The position numbers and the translations under genes are program-made. From Escherichia phage vB_EcoM_SQ17, in sequence record MW882907: DNA of 64,000 nt. The stretch is one strand, 5' to 3'. Shown in pieces: positions 12,051-33,323 of the stretch (positions are counted from its first letter, which is position 1; every line of letters begins with the position of its first letter). Under the pieces are notes generated by a model. It did no database searches, was not told the DNA's origin, and saw only the letters and a program-made list of their open reading frames with translations.

Positions 12051-12797
12051 TTAACCTTTAATCAGTTGGAATAATGATGCGCTAAGTGGTAAGCCACGTT
12101 TCAATTTTAATTTACCAATGAAACCAATCTTTTTAAAACGTTGCAGACCTTGGATAACTTTATCATATGTATCGAAAAGCGATTCAGCGTCAGTTAATTT
12201 AGTTTTAGTTTTCCAGTCAGAGCCTTTAAGAAGAACGTTGAGTTTAGTAAGTTCATGGCCTTCTGCTTGATGTGAGCCATTAATGCGTGCTTTCAAAGCA
12301 ACAATTCTAAGTTTAGATTCGTTAGATAAAGGTTGATTTTTCATCATGTTTGCCATATGCTTAACACGATTTTCACGTTTTGCTCGGATTTTTAAAATAG
12401 TACCATAAACCTTTTTAATTTGGGCCCATTTCTTCTCGTCGAGATTAAGTTTCTCTACTTTACGGGCAGAAGGATTAGCGATACGTCTTGCAATGGCATC
12501 ACGTTTCTCAATAAGTTCTTCTAATGTTAAATCAGAACGAGCCGTGTTATATTTTTTCTTAACTGGGATAACATTACCTTTAATGTAGCCGATATCATTA
12601 TTAAAACGTTCTAAGGATAATTTCTCACCTTCAACAGAGTTATTAAAAGATTCACCTGAGTAAGCGCAGACCTTTTGATCAAGAATGTTTTTAAGGTAAT
12701 TAAAGTCTAAGTTAAAATCCTTAGAGCGTCTCTTCGCAGAAGCTCTGGTGTGGTCAAGACGACGATTGATTTTGTTAATTTTATTATTTGACAACAT
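12051..12797 (-). CDS. basic hypothetical protein; Srd-like by size and position
   Basis: 248 aa, Lys/Arg-rich; T4 carries srd (about 251 aa) between dda.1 and modA; sequence identity not verified; weak HNH-like LERFNNDIGYIKGNV pattern noted. Confidence 0.4.
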   Translation of the reverse strand: MLSNNKINKINRRLDHTRASAKRRSKDFNLDFNYLKNILDQKVCAYSGESFNNSVEGEKLSLERFNNDIGYIKGNVIPVKKKYNTARSDLTLEELIEKRDAIARRIANPSARKVEKLNLDEKKWAQIKKVYGTILKIRAKRENRVKHMANMMKNQPLSNESKLRIVALKARINGSHQAEGHELTKLNVLLKGSDWKTKTKLTDAESLFDTYDKVIQGLQRFKKIGFIGKLKLKRGLPLSASLFQLIKG

Positions 12798-12949
12798 AAT
12801 ATTTTCCTCTGTCTTACGGACGTTAGGTCATTTAGCTGATAAGCTTATAATATCATGCCCTCAGGTAGTGTACACTCTTTTTTCATAAAATGCTTTAATT
12901 TTTTATGTGTTATAATGGTTCTGAGTTCCATCCGGTTATTCCAATTCAG

Positions 12950-23923: not shown

Positions 23924-24022
23924 TGTATTTTTCCATAGGCATCATTATATTTTACTCATGTTTAAAAGATAAGACGATTATATACTAAGGGTTATACAGC
24001 ATTTAAAACTTTAAACAGGCTC

Positions 24023-24571
24023 TTAACGAGCCCATTTGATAATTTCTGTAATCAAATAATTACGTTCGCTTGCATTAAATCCTATAACTTTGTTAGCACC
24101 GTCATGATTAAGTAATTGATACGTTTGGATTTTGTTATGAATTGCAAACTCTTCAAAATATGAAATGACTGTATTAAAACCGAATGAAGACAAAGTAATA
24201 AGGTCGTCTTCAAAACTTTCAGTCATTTCGTTACGTGTTAAAATAATTGTGAACACATCATGGTTTTGGCAAAGACGAACATAATCCTGTTCATAAACGT
24301 CAAGAACCGAGTCCGCATCTTGTCGAATACGTCCATAAACCCAGTTACTAATATATCCACGGTCTAACAGATAAATCTTAGTAGAGTCTAAATAATTCAA
24401 CATCGTTTCGAAACAGCCAACTTCATTTCGAGACTTAACATCGAAACGTCCATCAACTGTTCGTTTAGGGAAATCAATCTTTATATATCTTTCACTAATT
24501 TCCATTATGTCATTAATGAAAGTTGTTTTACCAGCATTATCCGGGCCATCTACTAAAATAATTTTAGCCAT
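24023..24571 (-). CDS. P-loop nucleoside/nucleotide kinase-like protein at the beta-gt locus
   Basis: 182 aa; Walker A GPDNAGKTT and LLDRGYIS resembling the thymidylate-kinase DRY motif; occupies the position of T4 beta-glucosyltransferase. Confidence 0.55.
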   Translation of the reverse strand: MAKIILVDGPDNAGKTTFINDIMEISERYIKIDFPKRTVDGRFDVKSRNEVGCFETMLNYLDSTKIYLLDRGYISNWVYGRIRQDADSVLDVYEQDYVRLCQNHDVFTIILTRNEMTESFEDDLITLSSFGFNTVISYFEEFAIHNKIQTYQLLNHDGANKVIGFNASERNYLITEIIKWAR

Positions 24572-24572
24572 T

Positions 24573-25472
24573 TTATTCCTCGATTACGACATCTTCATAT
24601 TTAGGTATATTATACGGTGAAGAAATTAAAGCGTTAAAGTAGATGAACTCGCCAAGACCTGGATGGAATACTTCTTCAGGATTTTCGAAATATTGAATCT
24701 TCGGCCGTCCTTTAAGAATTTGATAGTACTCAGTTTTAGTTGGATTAAAAATTCGAATCAGCGCTTCTTCAGGATACTTATTTCTGTCGAAGCTATTATT
24801 TGGATCGGTTATATAAAGCGGTTGACCTAATTGAATTGCACATTCAACCACTTGTTCAAAACGATAACACGGGTCACTAATTCGAAATGGATGAAAAATA
24901 CCATCTAGATGAATAGGAGCCAAATCACCTACAAGACGCTGCATGATGGAAGGACGTATAACTTTCTGCGTTACGATAATCTTATTACCATCTGCACCTG
25001 CGTTAACCAGCACTTCTTTTTGACGTTCATTCAACACAGTAGTTTGAAGTGAACGATTAACAGACAACATGTCGGTTTTTAAGAATTCGTCAATATAAAA
25101 ACGTGGTTTATTAGGGTCTGCAGTGATATTGAAATTGAATTCTACGTCAAAAGTGCCGTCATATCCAGTGATATCTGTGATTAGAAAATCACAATCATAA
25201 TAATCAATTAATGAATCAACCACAAATTCATTTTCAGACCAGAAATATTTACGAGTGTTATATGCGTTATCTTTATACCATAATGGAACAAACTTAAATT
25301 CTGGGAAAAGACGTTCACATTCTTTAATATCAGATGCATTACGTGGATATGTAATCACATCACCCGGATTAGCACGGTGCAAATGAAGTTGGAAGTTGCC
25401 ATCCTTAAGGATAGCATACTGTCCAGTTTCATAAGACCGCATACTCAAGATAGGTACGCGGAAAATAGCCAT
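24573..25472 (-). CDS. hypothetical protein at the beta-gt locus
   Basis: 299 aa ORF with no recognised motif. Confidence 0.5.
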   Translation of the reverse strand: MAIFRVPILSMRSYETGQYAILKDGNFQLHLHRANPGDVITYPRNASDIKECERLFPEFKFVPLWYKDNAYNTRKYFWSENEFVVDSLIDYYDCDFLITDITGYDGTFDVEFNFNITADPNKPRFYIDEFLKTDMLSVNRSLQTTVLNERQKEVLVNAGADGNKIIVTQKVIRPSIMQRLVGDLAPIHLDGIFHPFRISDPCYRFEQVVECAIQLGQPLYITDPNNSFDRNKYPEEALIRIFNPTKTEYYQILKGRPKIQYFENPEEVFHPGLGEFIYFNALISSPYNIPKYEDVVIEE

Positions 25473-26188
25473 TAGTCAAGGAATCCTTTAACATAATCAA
25501 AATCACGTTCAAACACATGGGCACTTACCATGGTATGAGTATAATCACCAACTTCTACACCACATTCGTTAGCGATATAATGAAGTAATTTTCCTTGGAG
25601 ATAAAAATCCAGCTGCATAACAACAGCACAGTTCTGAGAACGCATATGACAGTGGGTATAAAGCTTACCATCACGAATATAATAAGTCACTGAGTCAGTA
25701 CATGGATATTCAAGCGTTTCATCCGAATCAAGCAAAGCCTGATCTGAACTTTCTAGAATTTGGAACACAACTCTTCGAGAGTTAGGTTTCTCTTTAAGTT
25801 CTTTGAGAAGAGCTGGTAACTGGGCCGCAATTCGTGGACCATAGAAAGTGTTGAAGTTTGCAGGCAAAGCATCTGATTTAGGTTTAGAAATAAATTTAGC
25901 AACGTTAGGATATGCCTTAAATGCTTCTTCTGCATCAGTACCACCAGAAATCATAAACTTCCAGAAATCTTCAGCATATCCATAAGAGATGCGATTAATA
26001 CGTGGGTCGGTCATTTTGAATGATGATGGAGTGTCAACAACTACTGTCATAGACCCAATTTCATTACAACGTCCAATACGAGAATCAGTTACGAATTCCG
26101 GGTTTTCTAAAATTTCACGATTGACTGCTTTAAATGCGGTTTGAAAATCTGCGGCTTTGATATATTTCATTGTGTTATGTTTTCCCAT
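25472..26188 (-). CDS. 42: dCMP hydroxymethylase (thymidylate-synthase family)
   Basis: 238 aa; EYPCTDSVTYYIRDGKLYTHCHMRSQNCAVVMQLDFY aligns with remembered T4 gp42 active-site region DFMCTNTVQYLIRDKKINAVVNMRSNDVVFGFRNDY. Confidence 0.8.
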   Translation of the reverse strand: MGKHNTMKYIKAADFQTAFKAVNREILENPEFVTDSRIGRCNEIGSMTVVVDTPSSFKMTDPRINRISYGYAEDFWKFMISGGTDAEEAFKAYPNVAKFISKPKSDALPANFNTFYGPRIAAQLPALLKELKEKPNSRRVVFQILESSDQALLDSDETLEYPCTDSVTYYIRDGKLYTHCHMRSQNCAVVMQLDFYLQGKLLHYIANECGVEVGDYTHTMVSAHVFERDFDYVKGFLD

Positions 26189-26204
26189 GTTTACCTCAAT
26201 ACAA

Positions 26205-26232
26205 TTTATTATATACTCAATTCGTAAAGCTT
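26205..26232 (-). promoter_or_regulatory. possible MotA-type middle promoter upstream of gene 42
   Basis: minus strand AGCTTTAC about 11 nt upstream of TATATAAT; approximates the MotA box TGCTTtA plus -10 geometry. Confidence 0.3.
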
Positions 26233-26466
26233 ATTTGAATTTCTTGACAATGTTGATATAACGTAAAGCTTCAGCATCGATACTTCCAAGAACACTATGA
26301 AGAAATGCATCAGCGTAGTATTCCAATTAAACAGGTTCTTTAATCACTTTAGCCGCTTTAGTTTCAAACAGGCCCATCAGGGCCTTTTTAAGAATTTGTT
26401 CGTTGCTGTTAATTTTCGTAGTCAAAATCTCTTCATTAAGTTGGTGGTTAAAAGTTTTTCTAGAAA

Positions 26467-27627
26467 TCATTCTGGGTACCTCAAAGCGTCGTCAGAGTTA
26501 GTTATATCAATAATAGATATAGAGTTTTCTGATAACCCATTTTTAGATAACTGACGTTTATAATATCTTTCACAATATGTACACGTCGTCCCGCAGATTT
26601 CATTAGCACAATCGAAATCTGGATGTTTGAACCACCTTTTTTCTAAAAAGCCATCTAACAAAGAGGTTTCAATATTTACCGTATGTGAAAACTCAGTCTC
26701 ATTTTCAAGAGTGAAAATGGTCTCTAAAGGCTTCCATAATTCTAACAAATTACCTTCAAATTTTTCAGAAGCATAAGCTTCAAGAACTTTCAAAATGTAG
26801 TCTGTGCTACCTGTACGTCCTGAAACTTTGAATTGAGTGATACCAATATCATTATAAAGTTTCAAATCTTGAGGACGAACAAAACGAGTTCTCAACCAGT
26901 TAAATGGGTCTGTATCACGAGCTTTAATACAATGTTGCATTGGATATCCATTTAAAGATTTGGCATCATCTACTGTAACATCGGTGCTATGGAAAATATA
27001 GCAAGAGTCACGATAACTACAATGTGTTGTATACCCTTTACCAGCATTAGAACAGAACTCATTTACAAGAACTTCAAATATTATATTGTTCTTATTACAA
27101 AACTCTGCTGCACGCTTCAGGAAAGAAACTGAACGGTTCTTATGAATTCCGCAGCAGACCTTTTTGATATTATACTGGTCATGCAAGTATTTGATTTGAG
27201 TTACAGCATCGACATGTAGAATTGTTGAAACTTCAATCTCAATGTCTTTATTGACTTCACGAACAATTTCCATAACAACAGGGTTAGCGATAGTAATACG
27301 CCATACGCCTATTGACCAAAGATACTGAACATAATCCTGAATAGCTTTCTTCTTCCACTCAACTAGTTCTCTTTTTGAACCAGGATTTATCGTGTTGAGT
27401 GTATAGTTAAAGCAAATACCTAATTCGTTACAACGTTTAACGTAATCTTCTAACATCTTTTTGTCAACGTCAGGAAGCCTAAAATCAGGTCTGGCTGCTA
27501 CAAAAGCCATTTCTCTTGTAGAGCCGTATACTTCGTTTATCAAGCTATTAGGATAAGTTTTATTGAGCTCTACGATTTTATCAAGAAGAGCTAAATCAAA
27601 ATTCGTTCCGATTTTAAAAGTATTCAT
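26467..27627 (-). CDS. Cys-rich protein of unknown function, first gene of the sugar-nucleotide cassette
   Basis: 386 aa; clusters NEFCSNAGKGYTTHCSYRDSC and FDCANEICGTTCTYC suggest metal or Fe-S binding; faint resemblance to peptidase U32 signature; no T4 counterpart here. Confidence 0.55.
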   Translation of the reverse strand: MNTFKIGTNFDLALLDKIVELNKTYPNSLINEVYGSTREMAFVAARPDFRLPDVDKKMLEDYVKRCNELGICFNYTLNTINPGSKRELVEWKKKAIQDYVQYLWSIGVWRITIANPVVMEIVREVNKDIEIEVSTILHVDAVTQIKYLHDQYNIKKVCCGIHKNRSVSFLKRAAEFCNKNNIIFEVLVNEFCSNAGKGYTTHCSYRDSCYIFHSTDVTVDDAKSLNGYPMQHCIKARDTDPFNWLRTRFVRPQDLKLYNDIGITQFKVSGRTGSTDYILKVLEAYASEKFEGNLLELWKPLETIFTLENETEFSHTVNIETSLLDGFLEKRWFKHPDFDCANEICGTTCTYCERYYKRQLSKNGLSENSISIIDITNSDDALRYPE

Positions 27628-27682
27628 TTTTTACATCTCGCGTTAATTGATGCGATGGTTTTTGCAGGTCTTACTTAAATTA

Positions 27683-28084
27683 TTATAGATTCGGTTTATA
27701 TGATTTAAATGTTTCGAATTCGCCTTTATTCATAAGAGCTTTGAATTCGTCAGGACGCATAGCTTTGTCATCGATAATCCAATCATATACTGGTTTATGT
27801 GTTAGCAAATTATGGTACTTCAATCCAATGTTTGCCAAGTTCTGAATCAGACTCGGGAGAATGTCAATTGCTATACGACCAGGACCGACTGACTTCATAC
27901 CGCGAGCAGTGTAAAGCGTTATTGTATGCCCTGCATCATACAGGGCATTAATGGCAGACACCATTTCGACGTCTGGTTTGAAGTTCACGTAATCACGATT
28001 GTTATTCCACTCTGTTATACAATCATCGACATCAAAACAAAGATTAAGCATGTTTTCTACACGGTGCATTAGATTCGTTCCCAT
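27683..28084 (-). CDS. HAD-superfamily phosphatase (KdsC/GmhB-like small sugar-phosphate phosphatase)
   Basis: 133 aa; motif I FDVDDCIT (DxDxT), motif II TLYTARG, C-terminal DWIIDDK; alternative ATG at 28067-28069. Confidence 0.65.
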   Translation of the reverse strand: MGTNLMHRVENMLNLCFDVDDCITEWNNNRDYVNFKPDVEMVSAINALYDAGHTITLYTARGMKSVGPGRIAIDILPSLIQNLANIGLKYHNLLTHKPVYDWIIDDKAMRPDEFKALMNKGEFETFKSYKPNL

Positions 28085-29754
28085 TGATGAGTGATATCGC
28101 CACCGATTGGACGATAGGAAACACCAGTTTCTTTATCAGTTAGTACCCATTTACCAGGATTTTTTGTAATCAGAGTAGCCGTTACAGGTTCTGCTACGTC
28201 ATAACTAATAGAACCGTCCTGAAGTACACGGCCCATGTTACGTAATTGCTTAGTCAGAAGTTCCATACCTTTATAATATGCGGCTACCGCTTTAAGTGGA
28301 TTATTCTTGAAATAACCACCTAATGCAATCCAGATAATTGCTACAGCCAAATGATGATACTCGTTAAACGAACTCATCTTTCCATATTTGTAAACTAATG
28401 GATTGATGTTAATAGTCACATTACAAGTTGTTTCATCAATAGTAAACTGCCCCCAGGTCGGATTAGCGTTGAATTCATCATAACCTGAAACAGCATAAAG
28501 CACTTTAGCTTCATCATACAATTTTGGCCCATAAATCTTGGTTTCGCCAAAATATCCACGAGGGTCGATAAACTTGACTTCGCCATTATCAGTAATCATA
28601 GTATTACTGAAGTTCGGGTCACCATGAATAACAGAGTACTGTCCCTGAGAACGGTTATGATAACGAATAAGGTGTTCTAAAGCTTGTTTCAGCATTGGCT
28701 TCAGACGCCCAATCTTAGTGTAGTTCACATGTGTGATTTTACCAAATGAATCAATCAATGGTTGAATACTTTCACAACGATCAATAACTTTAGTATAGAA
28801 TTCTTTAGTGAAATCACGACGAACAGTTTCAGGACTTACAAAATAAGTGTCTGTGCTGAATTTCAGTGCATCTAAAATTGCATCAACAATTTGTGGACGA
28901 GCAAGACTCGATTTGGATTTAATATATTCAAATGCCGGCTTACCTTTAATGCGTTCCATTTCAAAGTTATTTTCATTAACAGAAACTAACTGAGGAACTG
29001 AATCTGATTTCACTTTAAGATACCATGAAATCTCATCTTTCTGAAGAGCTCGGCCTTGTTCGGTTAATGCGAATTTAGTTACAGTTTCTTCACCAATTTC
29101 AACGGCATTAAAACTACGATTAAGTTCACGAACTTCATGAGCCTTTTCAAGTTTAGGCATATCACCTAAATCAATTAGATTCATAAGCTCTGATTTATTG
29201 AATGCGCTGCCGTAAAGGAATTCTACGAAATCACGTCCTTTGCAGTATTCATGAATTTCCTCATCAGTAGAACCCATATAGAATTCCCAGTCTTTGAACT
29301 GATAAATTCCTACAACATTACCACCTGTTGAACCTACGTTAGTGATATTTTCGCCGTCGAAATTATATCGACATTCGTCACCCTTAACATAGATTGCGTT
29401 AACATTCCAAGACCATGAACCAAAATCAGGAATAATATCACACCAGTTAACAATTACATTATGGCCGTCTAAATCTTTGTGTAATTTAGCAAGAGCATAA
29501 GCAGAACCATACGCTTCATCAACTGTACGAATAGTCACATTGAACCCTTCTTGCTCACAATAAGCTCGAACAGTTTCAGCAAATTTTGAATGAACTACTA
29601 CAATAATTTCATCTGCGCCAAGGTCAGAATAAATTGTATACAAATTGCTCAGAATAGTGTCTTGTTTATAGTTAACAAGCACCTTAGGAATATGATGCGT
29701 TATTGGATACAAACGAGTTGCCAGTCCAGCACCAAGAATAACAGCTTTTTTCAT
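28069..29754 (-). CDS. bifunctional sugar-1-phosphate nucleotidyltransferase (N-terminal) and APH/choline-kinase-like sugar kinase (C-terminal)
   Basis: 561 aa; N-terminal ILGAGLATRL sugar nucleotidyltransferase signature; C-terminal IHGDPNFSNTMITDNGEVKFIDPRG kinase catalytic loop (HGD...N, IDxx). Confidence 0.75.
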   Translation of the reverse strand: MKKAVILGAGLATRLYPITHHIPKVLVNYKQDTILSNLYTIYSDLGADEIIVVVHSKFAETVRAYCEQEGFNVTIRTVDEAYGSAYALAKLHKDLDGHNVIVNWCDIIPDFGSWSWNVNAIYVKGDECRYNFDGENITNVGSTGGNVVGIYQFKDWEFYMGSTDEEIHEYCKGRDFVEFLYGSAFNKSELMNLIDLGDMPKLEKAHEVRELNRSFNAVEIGEETVTKFALTEQGRALQKDEISWYLKVKSDSVPQLVSVNENNFEMERIKGKPAFEYIKSKSSLARPQIVDAILDALKFSTDTYFVSPETVRRDFTKEFYTKVIDRCESIQPLIDSFGKITHVNYTKIGRLKPMLKQALEHLIRYHNRSQGQYSVIHGDPNFSNTMITDNGEVKFIDPRGYFGETKIYGPKLYDEAKVLYAVSGYDEFNANPTWGQFTIDETTCNVTININPLVYKYGKMSSFNEYHHLAVAIIWIALGGYFKNNPLKAVAAYYKGMELLTKQLRNMGRVLQDGSISYDVAEPVTATLITKNPGKWVLTDKETGVSYRPIGGDITHQWERI

Positions 29755-29795
29755 GTTGTGGTCCTCATTGGTAAGTAGGAGTATTGTACACTATT

Positions 29796-29939
29796 CTAGT
29801 TAAAGCATTCATACTTTGCTTGTAGTCCAATCATAATCCATCCGATTACAAGTGTTGGAATCATTACTGGAGCCGTTAAGCTCCAGTAGATAGTCATGAC
29901 AAGCATCAATAGTAAAAGTCCTATTGTTATTGCTTTCAT
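29796..29939 (-). CDS. small membrane peptide (47 aa), translationally coupled, absent from ORF track
   Basis: ATG overlaps the TAA of the isomerase gene (TAATG); translation MKAITIGLLLLMLVMTIYWSLTAPVMIPTLVIGWIMIGLQAKYECFN is strongly hydrophobic. Confidence 0.35.
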   Translation of the reverse strand: MKAITIGLLLLMLVMTIYWSLTAPVMIPTLVIGWIMIGLQAKYECFN

Positions 29940-30571
29940 TATTCGCCTCGTAACATGGCACCTAGTGCACCACCAGGGTGGAACTTAAGGAAGTCATTAG
30001 AGGTAAATCCACGCTCAGATGAAAGGTTGATAGCAAAAGTATCGATAAGCGCTAACAACAATGTAGTGGACATGGTCGGAGCCAGAGAATTCTCATCAAC
30101 CTCTACTGCGATGCCTGTACAGAAAGAGTAATCAAAAAGGGCTTCATTTTCTTGTGGAATGTCTGGGTTACAATGCAACAGAATCTGTTTGACGTTCGGA
30201 CGAATCATTTTAAGATGCTTAGCCACGCCTATCATTTCTTCAGTTTTACCGGAACGACTAATATGAATCAACACATCATTAGGCGCAATGAATCCTGCAT
30301 CACCGTGAGAATAATGCCCAGTGTTCAAGTACATACTCGGGATACCGAGTGAAGCAAATGTCTCAGAAGCTTTAGTTGCAATATTAGCATTCTTACCAAC
30401 ACCTGTAATAATTACTCGGCTTTCATAATTACTAAGTCCTGGGCGTCGAAGAGTTTCTAGAATAGCATTATAACGAGCAGGGTTTTGACTAATTACTTTG
30501 GCCATAGCGGCCAAAGAAGAAGCTTGTTTTATGATTGCGTCAATAGCGATAGTAATAGGAGTAGTTTTCAT
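29939..30571 (-). CDS. D-arabinose-5-phosphate isomerase, KdsD/GutQ-like single SIS domain
   Basis: 210 aa; ITGVGKNANIATKASETFASLG, HISRSGKTEE, LAPTMSTT and FHPGGALG align with the KdsD SIS domain hallmarks (GxGKSG, SNSG, LAPTSSTT, HPGGALG). Confidence 0.8.
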   Translation of the reverse strand: MKTTPITIAIDAIIKQASSLAAMAKVISQNPARYNAILETLRRPGLSNYESRVIITGVGKNANIATKASETFASLGIPSMYLNTGHYSHGDAGFIAPNDVLIHISRSGKTEEMIGVAKHLKMIRPNVKQILLHCNPDIPQENEALFDYSFCTGIAVEVDENSLAPTMSTTLLLALIDTFAINLSSERGFTSNDFLKFHPGGALGAMLRGE

Positions 30572-30611
30572 ATTTCTCTCATTTAATTAGTTTACCGTCC
30601 ATGTCATTATA

Positions 30612-33323
30612 TCAAAAATCGAACATATCGAACAGAGATGCTTTCTTCTCGTAATCGAGTTTCGCTGCTGATGTGAATCCTTCAAGTGGTTTAATAAATG
30701 TTTTCTCAAGGAGAACAGTGTAGTCCATCCAATGAAGTACATCGTCTTTAATTAAATCTGTGATTTCAGTACCAGAAGGCCATGCGATACATTTATCACC
30801 GAATGGGTTTCCTTCACGTAAAGGCAGAACATATACTTTTTCACCTTCTACAACTTGCGGTGCATCGATATTACCTTTGATAGCCCGGTTATACGTCAGA
30901 ATTCCACGAATATGGAACGGGCATTTGGGACCAGGGAATCCACCTACATCATATTTAGCAATGTTATTCGCAGAAGATACCGACGCGATGCTAATATAAT
31001 TCAATTGACGGAATTCTTTTTCAAACTCTTTAAAATATTCTTGTAATGATTCTTCACCTTCTTGAAGCATACGACGAATACATTCTTTAAGAGCTTTCTG
31101 TACTGCTTTAGGAGTCGAAGATTTCTGAGTCTCTAGACCCATGATTTTGAGTTTAGGCTCAGCGTAACGAGTACCTTCCATATCCCACACGTTTAATGCA
31201 TAACGTTTCTTACCAGTCCAGAATCCACCAATACCTTTAGAACCGAGTGGAGGCCCAGCGATAGCTTCTCGGTCCATGAACATTAAGTGTTGTTTATTGT
31301 TCATGTATTCACACATTTCACGGAAACCTCTATCAATAGCAGGTTCCATACGTTCACGTGCAAACTTATCTAAGAAGTCTACCCAATGGTTGGTATCACG
31401 GAATTTAGATTCACCAACCTTATCGATAATTTTATCAGCAGATACGTAAATAGAGTCTGTATCACCATAAAGAACGAAAGCTTCACCTTCTGTACCGCAA
31501 ACTTCATTCAGATATTCATTAACTTTACGTTCAATCCACTGTAAAGCCATTTGCCCGAATGTTGTGATTGCAGTAGCATTACGCAAATCATAATAACGGA
31601 ACCAAACGTTGCCAAGTGCACCATAAAGTGAGTTGATAAGCAATTTACGGTTAATTTGGGCAGTCATACCTGCAACTTCAGTACGTTGAGCTCTAAACAA
31701 CATTTCATTAAGAGATTTAGCAGACAACTTTTTAATCTTTTCTTTAATCTCATCGCTGAAGTCGAAACGATAATCAACATCTAATGGTTCGTCAACAGAA
31801 AGATTAGGATTATGCAATGCCTCTTTAATTATTTCACCATTACGTTGAGCTGCAAGCATGTAACCTTTATGTTCTTTACGTTGATTAAAGACTTTAGTGA
31901 TTTCAGTTGGAACTACACCATCACGGTCTTTATAATACATCATGCCGTTAGGAGAACAACTGTACACATCAGAAGGACGTTCAGCAACAGCGTTAATATA
32001 ATCATGCAATGGAGCTACTTTAAACGTTCCTGCTATTGTTTCTGGGCTAATATTCACTTGGCGAATAATACTTGGATACAGAGATGTAAGGTCGAAACTC
32101 ATTACATATTTGTATCGATTTGGAATAGGTTCCTTAACAAAAGCGCCGGGATAAGGTTGAACCGGGTGAGAACGACCTTGTGGAATCACCTTGTTCTGCT
32201 CTTTAAGGCTATTAAAAATAATAGCATCCCATGTTTTAATTGGGCTAAACACAGATTGAATCTGTATCTTAGCATAATAACCCATGTCCAAACTCAAGTT
32301 GATGAACTGACGCTTAGCATCAATTTGCAATACACGATACACGTCGATAATGTTATAAGAAATATATCGTTGGTGATTGCTTTCACGAAGCTTAGAAATA
32401 GGGCCGTCATATTTCAGTTTACCAACGTTCAATTCAAATTCTGAAATGTAATCCAGAGAATATGACGGTTGATTGGTAAAAGAGAATTTTTTGTAAAGGT
32501 CAATGTAATCAAGAACAGAGATACCGAACAATGTAATGATTTCACGAGAACCATACATGTTTTCAATAACTTTAACACGAGTTTTACGATGTGGTGATAA
32601 ACGTTTCGCAGTAGATTCGCCAAAAATATTCTTGATTCGGTTATACACATATGGAATATCAAATGACTCAACGTTCCATCCAGTCAAAATGACAGGAGTT
32701 TTCTGTTGCCAGAAGTTGAGATATTCCATCAACAATTCTTTTTCGTTATAGAACGGCATATAAATGATTTTATCGATAATTTCAGATGGAACTTCATCTC
32801 CACCTTGTTCTTGAAGCTTAGCCGCAATTTCGATAGACCATTCTTCTACATTACCATATGGAGAATTCAATAGATCAAATACGTAGAACCTGTCGTCAAT
32901 TGAGTCATAATGGGTGATAGCATCAATCGGATGTTTTGCTTGTGATGGCTCAGGGAACCCATCCGGAGATGTTACTTCGATGTCGAAGTTAGCCACACGA
33001 ATTTTTGTATGGTCGTATTTGATTTCATAGTTATAAGTGTCAGACAAATACGCCAATTTGAAATCGTCCATGCCAAGTGCTTCAAGACCGATATCTTCCA
33101 TGCGTTTAATCCATTGTGAGGCATCACGCATATTAGCGAACAACTTACGAGTACACGGCTTACCGTAGATATCGAAATATTTCGTAGCCTGACTTTCCGG
33201 ACAATGAGCAAACAGTGATGGTTTATATTCTACTTCACGAGTACGTTCACGGCCGTTAGAATCGATGTAACGTTCAAAAATTGAATCACCAATCTGTTCA
33301 ACCGTTAAGTAAAATTCTTTCAT
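30612..33323 (-). CDS. 43: DNA polymerase (family B) with 3'-5' exonuclease
   Basis: 903 aa; exo motifs FDIE and YNIIDV, polymerase motifs DxxSLYPS, KxxxNSxYG, YGDTDS; position upstream of regA. Confidence 0.95.
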   Translation of the reverse strand: MKEFYLTVEQIGDSIFERYIDSNGRERTREVEYKPSLFAHCPESQATKYFDIYGKPCTRKLFANMRDASQWIKRMEDIGLEALGMDDFKLAYLSDTYNYEIKYDHTKIRVANFDIEVTSPDGFPEPSQAKHPIDAITHYDSIDDRFYVFDLLNSPYGNVEEWSIEIAAKLQEQGGDEVPSEIIDKIIYMPFYNEKELLMEYLNFWQQKTPVILTGWNVESFDIPYVYNRIKNIFGESTAKRLSPHRKTRVKVIENMYGSREIITLFGISVLDYIDLYKKFSFTNQPSYSLDYISEFELNVGKLKYDGPISKLRESNHQRYISYNIIDVYRVLQIDAKRQFINLSLDMGYYAKIQIQSVFSPIKTWDAIIFNSLKEQNKVIPQGRSHPVQPYPGAFVKEPIPNRYKYVMSFDLTSLYPSIIRQVNISPETIAGTFKVAPLHDYINAVAERPSDVYSCSPNGMMYYKDRDGVVPTEITKVFNQRKEHKGYMLAAQRNGEIIKEALHNPNLSVDEPLDVDYRFDFSDEIKEKIKKLSAKSLNEMLFRAQRTEVAGMTAQINRKLLINSLYGALGNVWFRYYDLRNATAITTFGQMALQWIERKVNEYLNEVCGTEGEAFVLYGDTDSIYVSADKIIDKVGESKFRDTNHWVDFLDKFARERMEPAIDRGFREMCEYMNNKQHLMFMDREAIAGPPLGSKGIGGFWTGKKRYALNVWDMEGTRYAEPKLKIMGLETQKSSTPKAVQKALKECIRRMLQEGEESLQEYFKEFEKEFRQLNYISIASVSSANNIAKYDVGGFPGPKCPFHIRGILTYNRAIKGNIDAPQVVEGEKVYVLPLREGNPFGDKCIAWPSGTEITDLIKDDVLHWMDYTVLLEKTFIKPLEGFTSAAKLDYEKKASLFDMFDF

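Follow-up and report, generated by a model that had tools for sequence, protein, structure and literature searches.

Why would a phage keep a highly conserved protein of the peptidase U32 family in its DNA modification cassette when the aerobic steps of the modification are all assigned to other genes? The question arises from a gene of Escherichia phage vB_EcoM_SQ17 (sequence record MW882907), of which a stretch of 64,000 nucleotides, here called the window, was analyzed. The open reading frame (ORF) at positions 26467-27627 on the minus strand runs from an ATG to a stop codon and encodes 386 residues, the length given in the original prediction from the sequence. The window phage is an RB69-like Mosigvirus of the T4 type, and the gene is the ortholog of RB69 gp50 (RB69p050 = ORF050c, NP_861740). 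With slightly more belief than doubt, we propose that the gene provides an oxygen-independent route to 5-hydroxy-dCMP and is the anaerobic counterpart of the thymidylate synthase (TS) homolog in the same cassette, by analogy with the characterized U32 proteins.

The modification itself has been described for RB69. The modified base of its DNA is 5-hydroxycytosine with one or two arabinoses and not hydroxymethylcytosine, and its non-canonical nucleosides were reported as mono- and poly-arabinosylated 5-hydroxycytidines, with cytidine replaced completely (PMC13326640, NAR 2026). The enzyme that makes 5-hydroxy-dCMP is the TS homolog gp48, a flavin-binding protein that uses O2 as its oxygen source, as found by 18O2 labelling; aerobically, gp48 and a dNMP kinase suffice for 5hodC (PMC13326640). 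UDP-arabinose, in the form of UDP-arabinofuranose, is made by an arabinose-5-phosphate isomerase (API), an AfhE-like kinase/uridylyltransferase and an AfhF-like phosphatase, and transferases act on the DNA (PMC13326640). RB69p050 appears in that study only in Table 1, a table of fold matches, under the label 'Sugar or heterocycle reductase', and gp50 is left without an assigned step in this accounting. The cluster of Acinetobacter phage DLP3 is without a counterpart of RB69p050 (PMC13326640).

The only demonstrated phage route to 5-hydroxycytosine needs O2, and the hosts are enteric bacteria that live largely without it. The annotation of the gene as a U32 peptidase and its listing in the cluster are already known. 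The proposed function and the family-wide link to chorismate mutase, DAHP synthase and DNA modification genes appear to be new: our full-text searches, with He et al. 2026 and Mahler et al. 2025 outside their coverage, found no paper that ties a phage U32 protein or a chorismate mutase to 5-hydroxycytosine.

A U32 protein with two sets of invariant cysteines

The ORF is a real gene. Copies with at least 80% identity are present in 221 phage records, and the protein matches PHROG 5757 over its full length (E=2e-266). Residues 94-286 (26770-27348, minus strand) match the Pfam family Peptidase_U32 (PF01136) with 42.4 bits, where the gathering score is 22.4 (E=6.3e-11), and the ortholog in Enterobacter phage Entb_45 scores 43.6 bits. 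The resemblance to peptidase U32 that had been noticed from the sequence is thus real and statistically significant, and the accompanying statement that the protein has no clear family assignment does not hold; many GenBank records call it a peptidase or U32 peptidase.

Two checks that the original prediction had proposed, structure prediction and profile-profile comparison, both led to the U32 family. An AlphaFold2 model calculated with 60 homologs has a pLDDT of 92.9 and a pTM of 0.91. Its top Foldseek match in the PDB is the U32 peptidase Mk0906 (5D88; E=6.2e-7, target-normalized TM-score 0.70), and the other matches are generic TIM barrels. A sequence search of PDB chains with the U32 protein gave nothing at E<=1. 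When the clade profile was compared by hhalign with four E. coli U32 paralogs, the best match was RlhA (residues 54-285 aligned, 205 columns, probability 82%, E=1.1e-5). The probabilities for UbiU and TrhP were 4.5% and 10.6%, single-sequence templates making for a weak comparison. The phage protein is ~21% identical to RlhA. PF01136 is the only domain found in the Pfam scan, which gave neither DUF3656 nor another RlhA-specific domain, and the score with the UbiU equivalog model of NCBIfam (NF047963) is 19.4 bits, where the cut-off is 440. Judged by sequence, the phage protein is a homolog of RlhA and not its ortholog.

The two cysteine clusters of the original prediction, NEFCSNAGKGYTTHCSYRDSC and FDCANEICGTTCTYC, are both present in the protein, and the translations were verified. 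Ten cysteines (C158, C177, C192, C203, C209, C233, C340, C345, C349 and C352) are invariant in 60 sequences of 46-100% identity. Four of them form a core motif, C192-x10-C203-x5-C209-x23-C233 (26929-27054, minus strand), which is a candidate [4Fe-4S] site. Another four form a C-terminal cluster, C340-x4-C345-x3-C349-x2-C352 (26572-26610, minus strand), a candidate second metal or iron-sulfur (Fe-S) site whose spacing is kept in 58 of the 60 sequences. Two such sets would be enough for two clusters or metal sites, in an arrangement similar to that of RlhA.

These features also bear on whether the protein is a true protease of the collagenase-like PrtC kind. Most database records name it so, with entries that read 'peptidase', 'putative protease' or 'collagenase-like protease', and some U32 proteins were reported to be collagenolytic. 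The names, however, have been propagated from the family label; the family has no known catalytic mechanism for proteolysis, and its characterized members are required for hydroxylation. Neither the invariant cysteine clusters nor the genomic contexts described below fit a protease, and we consider that the protein is almost certainly not one.

Chemistry of the characterized U32 proteins

In the original prediction, U32 was described as a family that includes Fe-S dependent hydroxylases of nucleic-acid bases, and this proved to be the key lead. RlhA is required for 5-hydroxycytidine 2501 of 23S rRNA and needs prephenate and the isc genes of Fe-S biogenesis; cysteines are needed both in its U32 motif and in its C-terminal cluster. 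TrhP is required for ho5U34 in tRNA, depends on prephenate and is indifferent to anaerobiosis. The unrelated TrhO does the same with O2, and the authors of that work described the duality as useful for life in both aerobic and anaerobic environments. UbiU and UbiV bind one [4Fe-4S] each through four cysteines, with ligand positions that vary between paralogs (CX6CX16CX38C in UbiU). They hydroxylate ubiquinone precursors independently of O2, and 18O labelling identified prephenate as the oxygen donor (2024 PNAS). Each of the characterized U32 proteins is the O2-independent counterpart of an O2-dependent enzyme.

Comparison with these systems shows likenesses and differences. RlhA and the phage protein share the U32 domain and both have a core and a C-terminal cysteine set, and the cytosine C5 hydroxylation of RlhA is the chemistry that the phage pathway needs. 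RlhA, however, has 653 residues, contains DUF3656 and acts on a ribosome assembly intermediate, whereas the phage protein has 386 residues, is encoded in a DNA-precursor module and has no canonical CX6CX15CX3C motif. TrhP and TrhO provide one product by two unrelated enzymes, one of them O2-dependent and the other of the U32 family, and the proposed pair of gp48 and gp50 would parallel them. In that case the substrate is a tRNA uridine, TrhO belongs to the rhodanese family and is not a TS homolog, and the genes are unclustered. UbiU and UbiV are U32 proteins that serve as the anaerobic counterpart of O2-dependent flavin monooxygenases (UbiIHF), but they form a heterodimer, work with the accessory protein UbiT and have a lipid substrate, whereas the phage has a single U32 gene. 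The closest partner for comparison is gp48 itself, the 5-hydroxy-dCMP synthase of RB69 and HY126-type phages, which is encoded two genes downstream in the same cassette and would make the same product. It has an unrelated fold, a flavin cofactor and oxygen from O2, and its function was verified experimentally whereas that of gp50 is predicted. A precedent for such a pair is found in T4, where NrdAB and NrdDG are O2-dependent and O2-independent enzymes for one DNA-precursor step in a T4-type phage, although their chemistry and families differ.

The two characterized U32 proteins with nucleic-acid substrates act on RNA, and the best E. coli match is RlhA. The phage protein could therefore be an RNA hydroxylase like TrhP or RlhA that acts on host or phage tRNA or rRNA and tunes translation during infection. 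T4-like phages also encode tRNAs of their own. This possibility has to contend with the missing RlhA-specific domain, the failed UbiU equivalog model and the fact that the host already has TrhP and RlhA. In addition, the ~45 sampled loci are DNA-precursor or DNA-modification modules and not neighbourhoods of tRNA or ribosome genes. We regard an RNA substrate as very unlikely.

Prephenate-supply genes next to U32

The product of chorismate mutase is prephenate. In Entb_45, the gene that overlaps the U32 stop codon encodes a 79-residue AroQ chorismate mutase, with a Pfam CM_2 match above the gathering score (E=2.4e-10). CM_2 matches above the gathering score lie adjacent to U32, or one gene from it, in 11 T4-like lineages: Entb_45, Thanatos-2, CHI14, phiR1-RT, PhiKpNIH-6, PM2, Providencia PSTRCR_121, Proteus Pm5461, EcS1, Serratia 92A1 and the metagenomic T4-like contig L025. 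In Thanatos-2 the pair has been relocated and follows the kinase gene, and in L025 its order is inverted, with the chorismate mutase gene before U32. Since their adjacency survives both relocation and inversion, gene order provides good evidence for a functional coupling of the two. The phage chorismate mutases retain PheA residues R11, R28, K39, E52, S84 and Q88, which we take to be the active-site set of the E. coli chorismate mutase.

In the 64-kb window we found no chorismate mutase or DAHP synthase; the sole match, at 12054-12827, is spurious (14 bits). The genus of the window phage lost the chorismate mutase gene or never had it, and because of this the clue offered by chorismate mutase and DAHP synthase was invisible from the window. 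The trhP gene of E. coli has no chorismate mutase alongside either.

Conservation and host distribution

We compared the cassette proteins of the window phage with those of 11 other T4-like lineages. The identity of U32 is 76-87%. For comparison, the gp43 C-terminus has 60-83%, the TS homolog 62-83%, and the AfhE-like, transferase and kinase genes 37-73%, which places U32 with the best conserved proteins of the cassette.

The phage distributions of U32 and the TS homolog are different. The TS homolog is present in 373 phage records, including those of 57 Acinetobacter and 20 Rhizobium phages. The 221 U32-bearing records have Enterobacterales or Shewanella as hosts among the matches listed; no Acinetobacter phage is among these U32 matches, though the 57 Acinetobacter phages have both the TS homolog and AfhE. 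In the cassettes of Lazarus (Acinetobacter) and PspYZU05 (Pseudomonas), the phosphatase gene is followed by the TS homolog, with no U32. Acinetobacter and Pseudomonas hosts are aerobes, and the hosts of the U32-positive phages are facultative anaerobes. In cellular genomes, a U32 relative was found on 10 contigs among 185,579 species genomes. These contigs come mostly from Erysipelotrichales, Oscillospiraceae, Romboutsia, Gastranaerophilaceae, Phocaeicola and Angelakisella, which are gut lineages and obligate anaerobes. The phage and cellular distributions lend indirect support to an activity independent of O2, although the Dhakaviruses of E. coli, described below, are an exception that weakens the pattern.

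Distant relatives and their neighbourhoods

Protein databases contain many relatives of ~360 residues with 46-58% identity, and an exhaustive profile search gave 482 clusters (50% identity) at E<=1e-30, mainly phage-borne. To describe their surroundings, we tallied the Pfam families of three genes on each side of U32 in 26 non-redundant distant viral loci (34-55% identity), 140 proteins in total. DAHP_synth_1 was the most frequent (6 of 140), followed by CM_2, DNA polymerase III alpha and thymidylate kinase with 5 each, UDG and SIS with 4 each, dUTPase and NTP_transferase with 3 each and dCMP deaminase with 2. In one of the contexts, the gene directly 3' of U32 encodes a DAHP synthase, with E=2.6e-70 for the NCBIfam DAHPS model versus 2.9e-17 for KDO8P synthase. 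Shikimate-pathway enzymes would not be expected in many phage genomes. Directly beside U32, a DAHP synthase of type I-beta is encoded in the contigs L023 (9145-9888), L044, L055, L057-L059, L069, L076 and L082. In several phage contigs the enzyme is fused to a chorismate mutase domain (~340-372 residues), and a fused gene of this kind is also found beside U32 in L082, a contig of a Gastranaerophilaceae metagenome-assembled genome (MAG).

Other neighbours belong to nucleotide metabolism. On a 466-kb contig, a dCMP deaminase gene is directly upstream of U32, and thymidylate kinase, UDG and a DnaE-type polymerase are present. NT5C, dNK and nucleoside deoxyribosyltransferase are neighbours at further U32 loci.

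A third group consists of enzymes that could decorate a hydroxyl group. In two unrelated phage contigs of ~44-61 kb (L024:8001-10000 and L052:6001-7979), U32 is directly followed by a TAGT-like DNA glycosyltransferase of the Tet-associated type, recognized by a weak Pfam match; dUTPase/DCD and UDP-galactopyranose mutase are nearby, and no TS homolog was seen in the locus. The gene content suggests that these phages may have a pathway for galactofuranosylated hydroxypyrimidine. At ~10 loci, an AfhE-like gene and an isomerase gene are beside U32, and no strong TS homolog lies within 6 kb; in L046 a weak homolog (E=5e-6) is located at a distance of 3.6 kb. At several genome loci, U32 follows an NMP-kinase/methyltransferase fusion. 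A recurring set (L087:2936-6089, L080, L086, L088 and L018) consists of GP88, a guanylate-kinase-methyltransferase fusion of ~415-445 residues, a protein of ~265-285 residues and U32, on contigs assigned to Phocaeicola faecalis, Angelakisella, a BRC1 MAG and Bacillota. As a speculation, this set may hydroxylate a nucleotide and then O-methylate it. The type of sugar also differs among the loci of the clade. Given such varied contexts, the common denominators are prephenate supply, nucleotide metabolism and hydroxyl-decorating enzymes.

We are evenly divided over a wider proposal, namely that the U32 clade of 482 clusters consists of O2-independent, prephenate-using nucleobase hydroxylases which install a handle for glycosylation or methylation and are fed by phage chorismate mutase and DAHP synthase.

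The same contexts raise the possibility that the window protein is an enzyme of this kind with another substrate or product, such as dUMP, another pyrimidine nucleotide, residual cytosines in DNA or an undetected minor second modification. Distant relatives have U32 directly after dCMP deaminase, which yields dUMP, and TrhP acts on uridine. The NMP-kinase/methyltransferase fusions suggest that members of the clade differ in substrate and in the chemistry that follows. On the other hand, the nucleosides reported for RB69 are arabinosylated 5-hydroxycytidines with complete replacement of cytidine (PMC13326640), and the gene lies inside the 5-hydroxycytosine cassette, near the dCMP-specific TS homolog. 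A different substrate or product is in our view fairly unlikely. A second modification step, which the original prediction had considered, is not needed for the known product, and the evidence points instead to an alternative, O2-independent first step, the C5 hydroxylation.

A proposed oxygen-independent route to 5-hydroxy-dCMP

In the route that we propose, the U32 protein would be an Fe-S enzyme that hydroxylates pyrimidine C5 in a prephenate-dependent reaction independent of O2. Its likeliest job would be to make 5-hydroxy-dCMP; hydroxylation of cytosine already in DNA would be less likely. The resulting 5-hydroxycytosine would be the acceptor for arabinose from the phage glycosyltransferases. 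The hydroxyl oxygen would come from prephenate, by analogy with UbiU/V, TrhP and RlhA, and electrons would be carried by a [4Fe-4S] on C192, C203, C209 and C233 and by a second site on the C-terminal four-cysteine cluster. Prephenate would be supplied by the adjacent phage chorismate mutase in most related phages and by the host PheA/TyrA in the genus of the window phage. The proposal builds on the observed family membership, fold, invariant cysteines, conservation, gene neighbourhoods and phage distribution. Fe-S binding, prephenate use, oxygen independence and the identity of the substrate are inferred.

The gene very probably takes part in the same DNA modification pathway as its neighbours, as had been suggested from its position. 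An O2-free route is the most economical account of it because the aerobic steps are all assigned elsewhere, yet U32 is highly conserved; because the U32 family performs O2-independent, prephenate-dependent hydroxylation, including that of cytidine C5, and the relatives carry prephenate-pathway enzymes; and because the only known 5-hydroxy-dCMP synthase needs O2.

A number of observations weigh against this route. The canonical U32 motif CX6CX15CX3/4C is present in 0 of 60 clade members, and the same regular expression finds TrhP and RlhA; the predicted Fe-S binding therefore rests on a variant motif located in the same region. A PROSITE-like U32 signature, E-x-F-x2-G-[SA]-[LIVM]-C-x4-G-x-C-x-[LIVM]-S, matched the controls UbiU, TrhP and RlhA at residues 161-162. 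It has no match in the window protein, in which the corresponding stretch is NEFCSNAGKGYTTHCSYRDSC, and matches 0 of 60 clade members. The MAFFT and hhalign registers of the phage cysteines relative to the canonical ligands disagree; a one-to-one pairing was dropped over this conflict, which is also why we claim only two conserved four-cysteine sets. No FNR-type box was found upstream of the U32 gene, and the window-wide count of such boxes is at chance level (95 versus 85.7 +/- 9.1). U32 occurs without chorismate mutase in Mosigviruses, including the window phage, and in one Klebsiella phage type. JS98 (L013), a Dhakavirus of E. coli, has the TS homolog and is missing both U32 and chorismate mutase; since Dhakaviruses without U32 infect E. 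coli, U32 is not indispensable for enteric phages. The known substrates of the U32 family are RNA polymers and a quinone, with no mononucleotides among them. At the time of the 2024 PNAS paper, reconstitution of direct hydroxylase activity in vitro had yet to be achieved for a U32 protein, and we found no published biochemical or genetic test of the protein studied here, He et al. 2026 and Mahler et al. 2025 being outside the coverage of the search. Finally, distant phages and a genome contig of Oscillospiraceae repeat the block API-AfhE-HAD-U32 with its gene order unchanged, which fits a sugar role too, and the check for a TS homolog in these phages covered 6 kb on either side.

This block keeps open, as a less likely option, the 'sugar tailoring' of the original prediction, in which the protein would tailor sugars or work on sugar nucleotides in the arabinose branch. 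The window gene is itself packed with the API, AfhE-like and HAD genes, and its TIM-barrel fold resembles many sugar enzymes. It has been labelled as a sugar or heterocycle reductase (PMC13326640, Table 1) and, in GenBank MZ501056, as a 'putative enzyme involved in UDP-arabinose biosynthesis'. However, the synthesis of UDP-arabinofuranose is reported to be complete with API, AfhE and AfhF, and the sugar that becomes attached is arabinose (PMC13326640). Acinetobacter and Pseudomonas phages and Dhakaviruses have arabinose genes without U32, and at other loci members of the clade accompany galactofuranose genes or have no sugar genes near them. A sugar role would furthermore leave the chorismate mutase and DAHP synthase neighbours unexplained. 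It is the less supported suggestion, and we consider it unlikely.

If the U32 gene does provide an O2-independent route to 5-hydroxy-dCMP, the range of prephenate-dependent hydroxylation would grow beyond RNA and quinones to include DNA precursors. Such a route would account for the replication of these phages in the gut, a matter of relevance to phage therapy that uses Mosigvirus-type phages, and with a mononucleotide as the soluble substrate it could become feasible to reconstitute a U32 hydroxylase in vitro. The wider proposal on the clade, if correct, would give U32 hydroxylases their first DNA-related function and would be the first case in which phages encode shikimate-pathway enzymes to supply a co-substrate of DNA hypermodification. 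It predicts that DNA modifications based on 5-hydroxypyrimidines are widespread among the phages of anaerobic gut bacteria. Metagenomic U32 loci with DAHP synthase or chorismate mutase, with glycosyltransferase-like genes or with the kinase-methyltransferase fusion may point to hypermodifications yet to be described in phages that infect anaerobes.

Organization of the cassette

The region 24000-30600 is 97.8-98.4% identical in DNA sequence to RB69, F2, ST0 and ~150 further phage records, the value for RB69 being 97.8%. All its genes described here are on the minus strand, and U32 has the orientation of the arabinose genes and is tightly spaced with them, as stated in the original prediction. 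It does not head the cassette, as was also stated there. It is the fifth gene downstream of the DNA polymerase gene gp43 (30612-33323) and is located mid-cassette, before the TS homolog, a glycosyltransferase and a kinase-like gene.

The first gene after gp43 encodes the API, with a SIS domain (29939-30571; the RB69 gp55 ortholog), assigned from Pfam, PHROG and PMC13326640. It abuts an ORF for a hydrophobic protein of 47 residues (29796-29939, PHROG 3610), which is probably a small membrane protein at the position of the T4 imm region; ORFs of like size and position are present in CHI14, PM2 and EcS1. The next gene encodes the AfhE-like bifunctional nucleotidyltransferase/kinase of 561 residues (28069-29754), with a Pfam NTP_transferase match and weak kinase-family matches (PMC13326640). 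The HAD-type, AfhF-like phosphatase (27683-28084, PHROG 1238) is the ortholog of RB69 gp51; it matches NCBIfam TIGR01689 with E=4.3e-13, under the curated cut-off, and its role is as given in PMC13326640.

Downstream of U32, the TS homolog (25472-26188, Pfam Thymidylat_synt) is the ortholog of RB69 gp48, the 5-hydroxy-dCMP synthase (PMC13326640). It is followed by the putative DNA arabinosyltransferase 1 of 299 residues (24573-25472, PHROG 3891), which is assigned according to Table 1 of PMC13326640, and by a thymidylate-kinase-like nucleotide kinase (24023-24571, PHROG 761; the RB69 gp45 ortholog), listed in the same table. The next gene is uvsX. The AfhE-like gene (RB69 gp52:53) and the arabinosyltransferase gene (gp46:47) are each one intact ORF in the window, whereas the RB69 reference splits both (052/053 and 046/047). 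The intact ORFs are in line with the view, taken in the literature, that sequencing errors gave rise to the splits in RB69.

The cassette of the Dhakavirus JS98 has the TS homolog, AfhE-like, HAD, kinase and transferase genes and is missing the API gene. Arabinose-5-phosphate in Dhakaviruses presumably comes from the host KdsD/GutQ.

Between U32 and the TS homolog lies a disrupted gene, here called gene X (26231-26470, minus strand), a homolog of RB69 ORF049c (PHROG 8601) with 79 codons and an in-frame TAA at 26327-26329. The original prediction had U32 coupled to a micro-ORF at this place. The overlap stands, with the ATG of the micro-ORF and the TGA of U32 sharing ATGA at 26467-26470, but the micro-ORF (26327-26470, 47 codons) is only the 5' part of gene X and thus a remnant of the 79-codon gene. 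Codon 48 is CAA in the intact gene of RB69 and has become TAA in the window phage by a C-to-T change; the same TAA is found in S143_2. HY126 has two independent +1 insertions in gene X, and the gene is missing from the Klebsiella relative Clarke_MM3. These disruptions are independent and affect a gene described as translationally coupled to U32. Gene X appears to be dispensable in the genus of the window phage. Its homologs phiR1-RT g049, PM2 gp045 and a 74-residue ORF of 92A1 are located between U32 and the chorismate mutase gene.

We also considered the micro-ORF as a chorismate mutase and rejected it. It has no match to Pfam CM_2 or to the NCBIfam chorismate mutase models, nor does a match arise when translation is continued past the stop to all 79 codons, and its hhalign probability against the phage chorismate mutase profile is 2.4%. 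In phiR1-RT, PM2 and 92A1, gene X and the chorismate mutase gene coexist as separate genes.

Two possible regulatory features are located upstream of U32. A sigma-70-like promoter candidate, TTTAAA-16-TATAAT (27682-27709, minus strand; 10 of 12 matches), precedes the U32 start and falls inside the 3' end of the HAD gene. It carries no weight, as the promoter and terminator scan gave no enrichment over shuffles. A stem-loop with a 7-bp stem, TCGCATC-AATT-AACGCGA on the coding strand with one G-T pair, is found at 27638-27655 in the 55-nucleotide gap before the U32 ribosome-binding region, and could have an effect on translation or mRNA stability.

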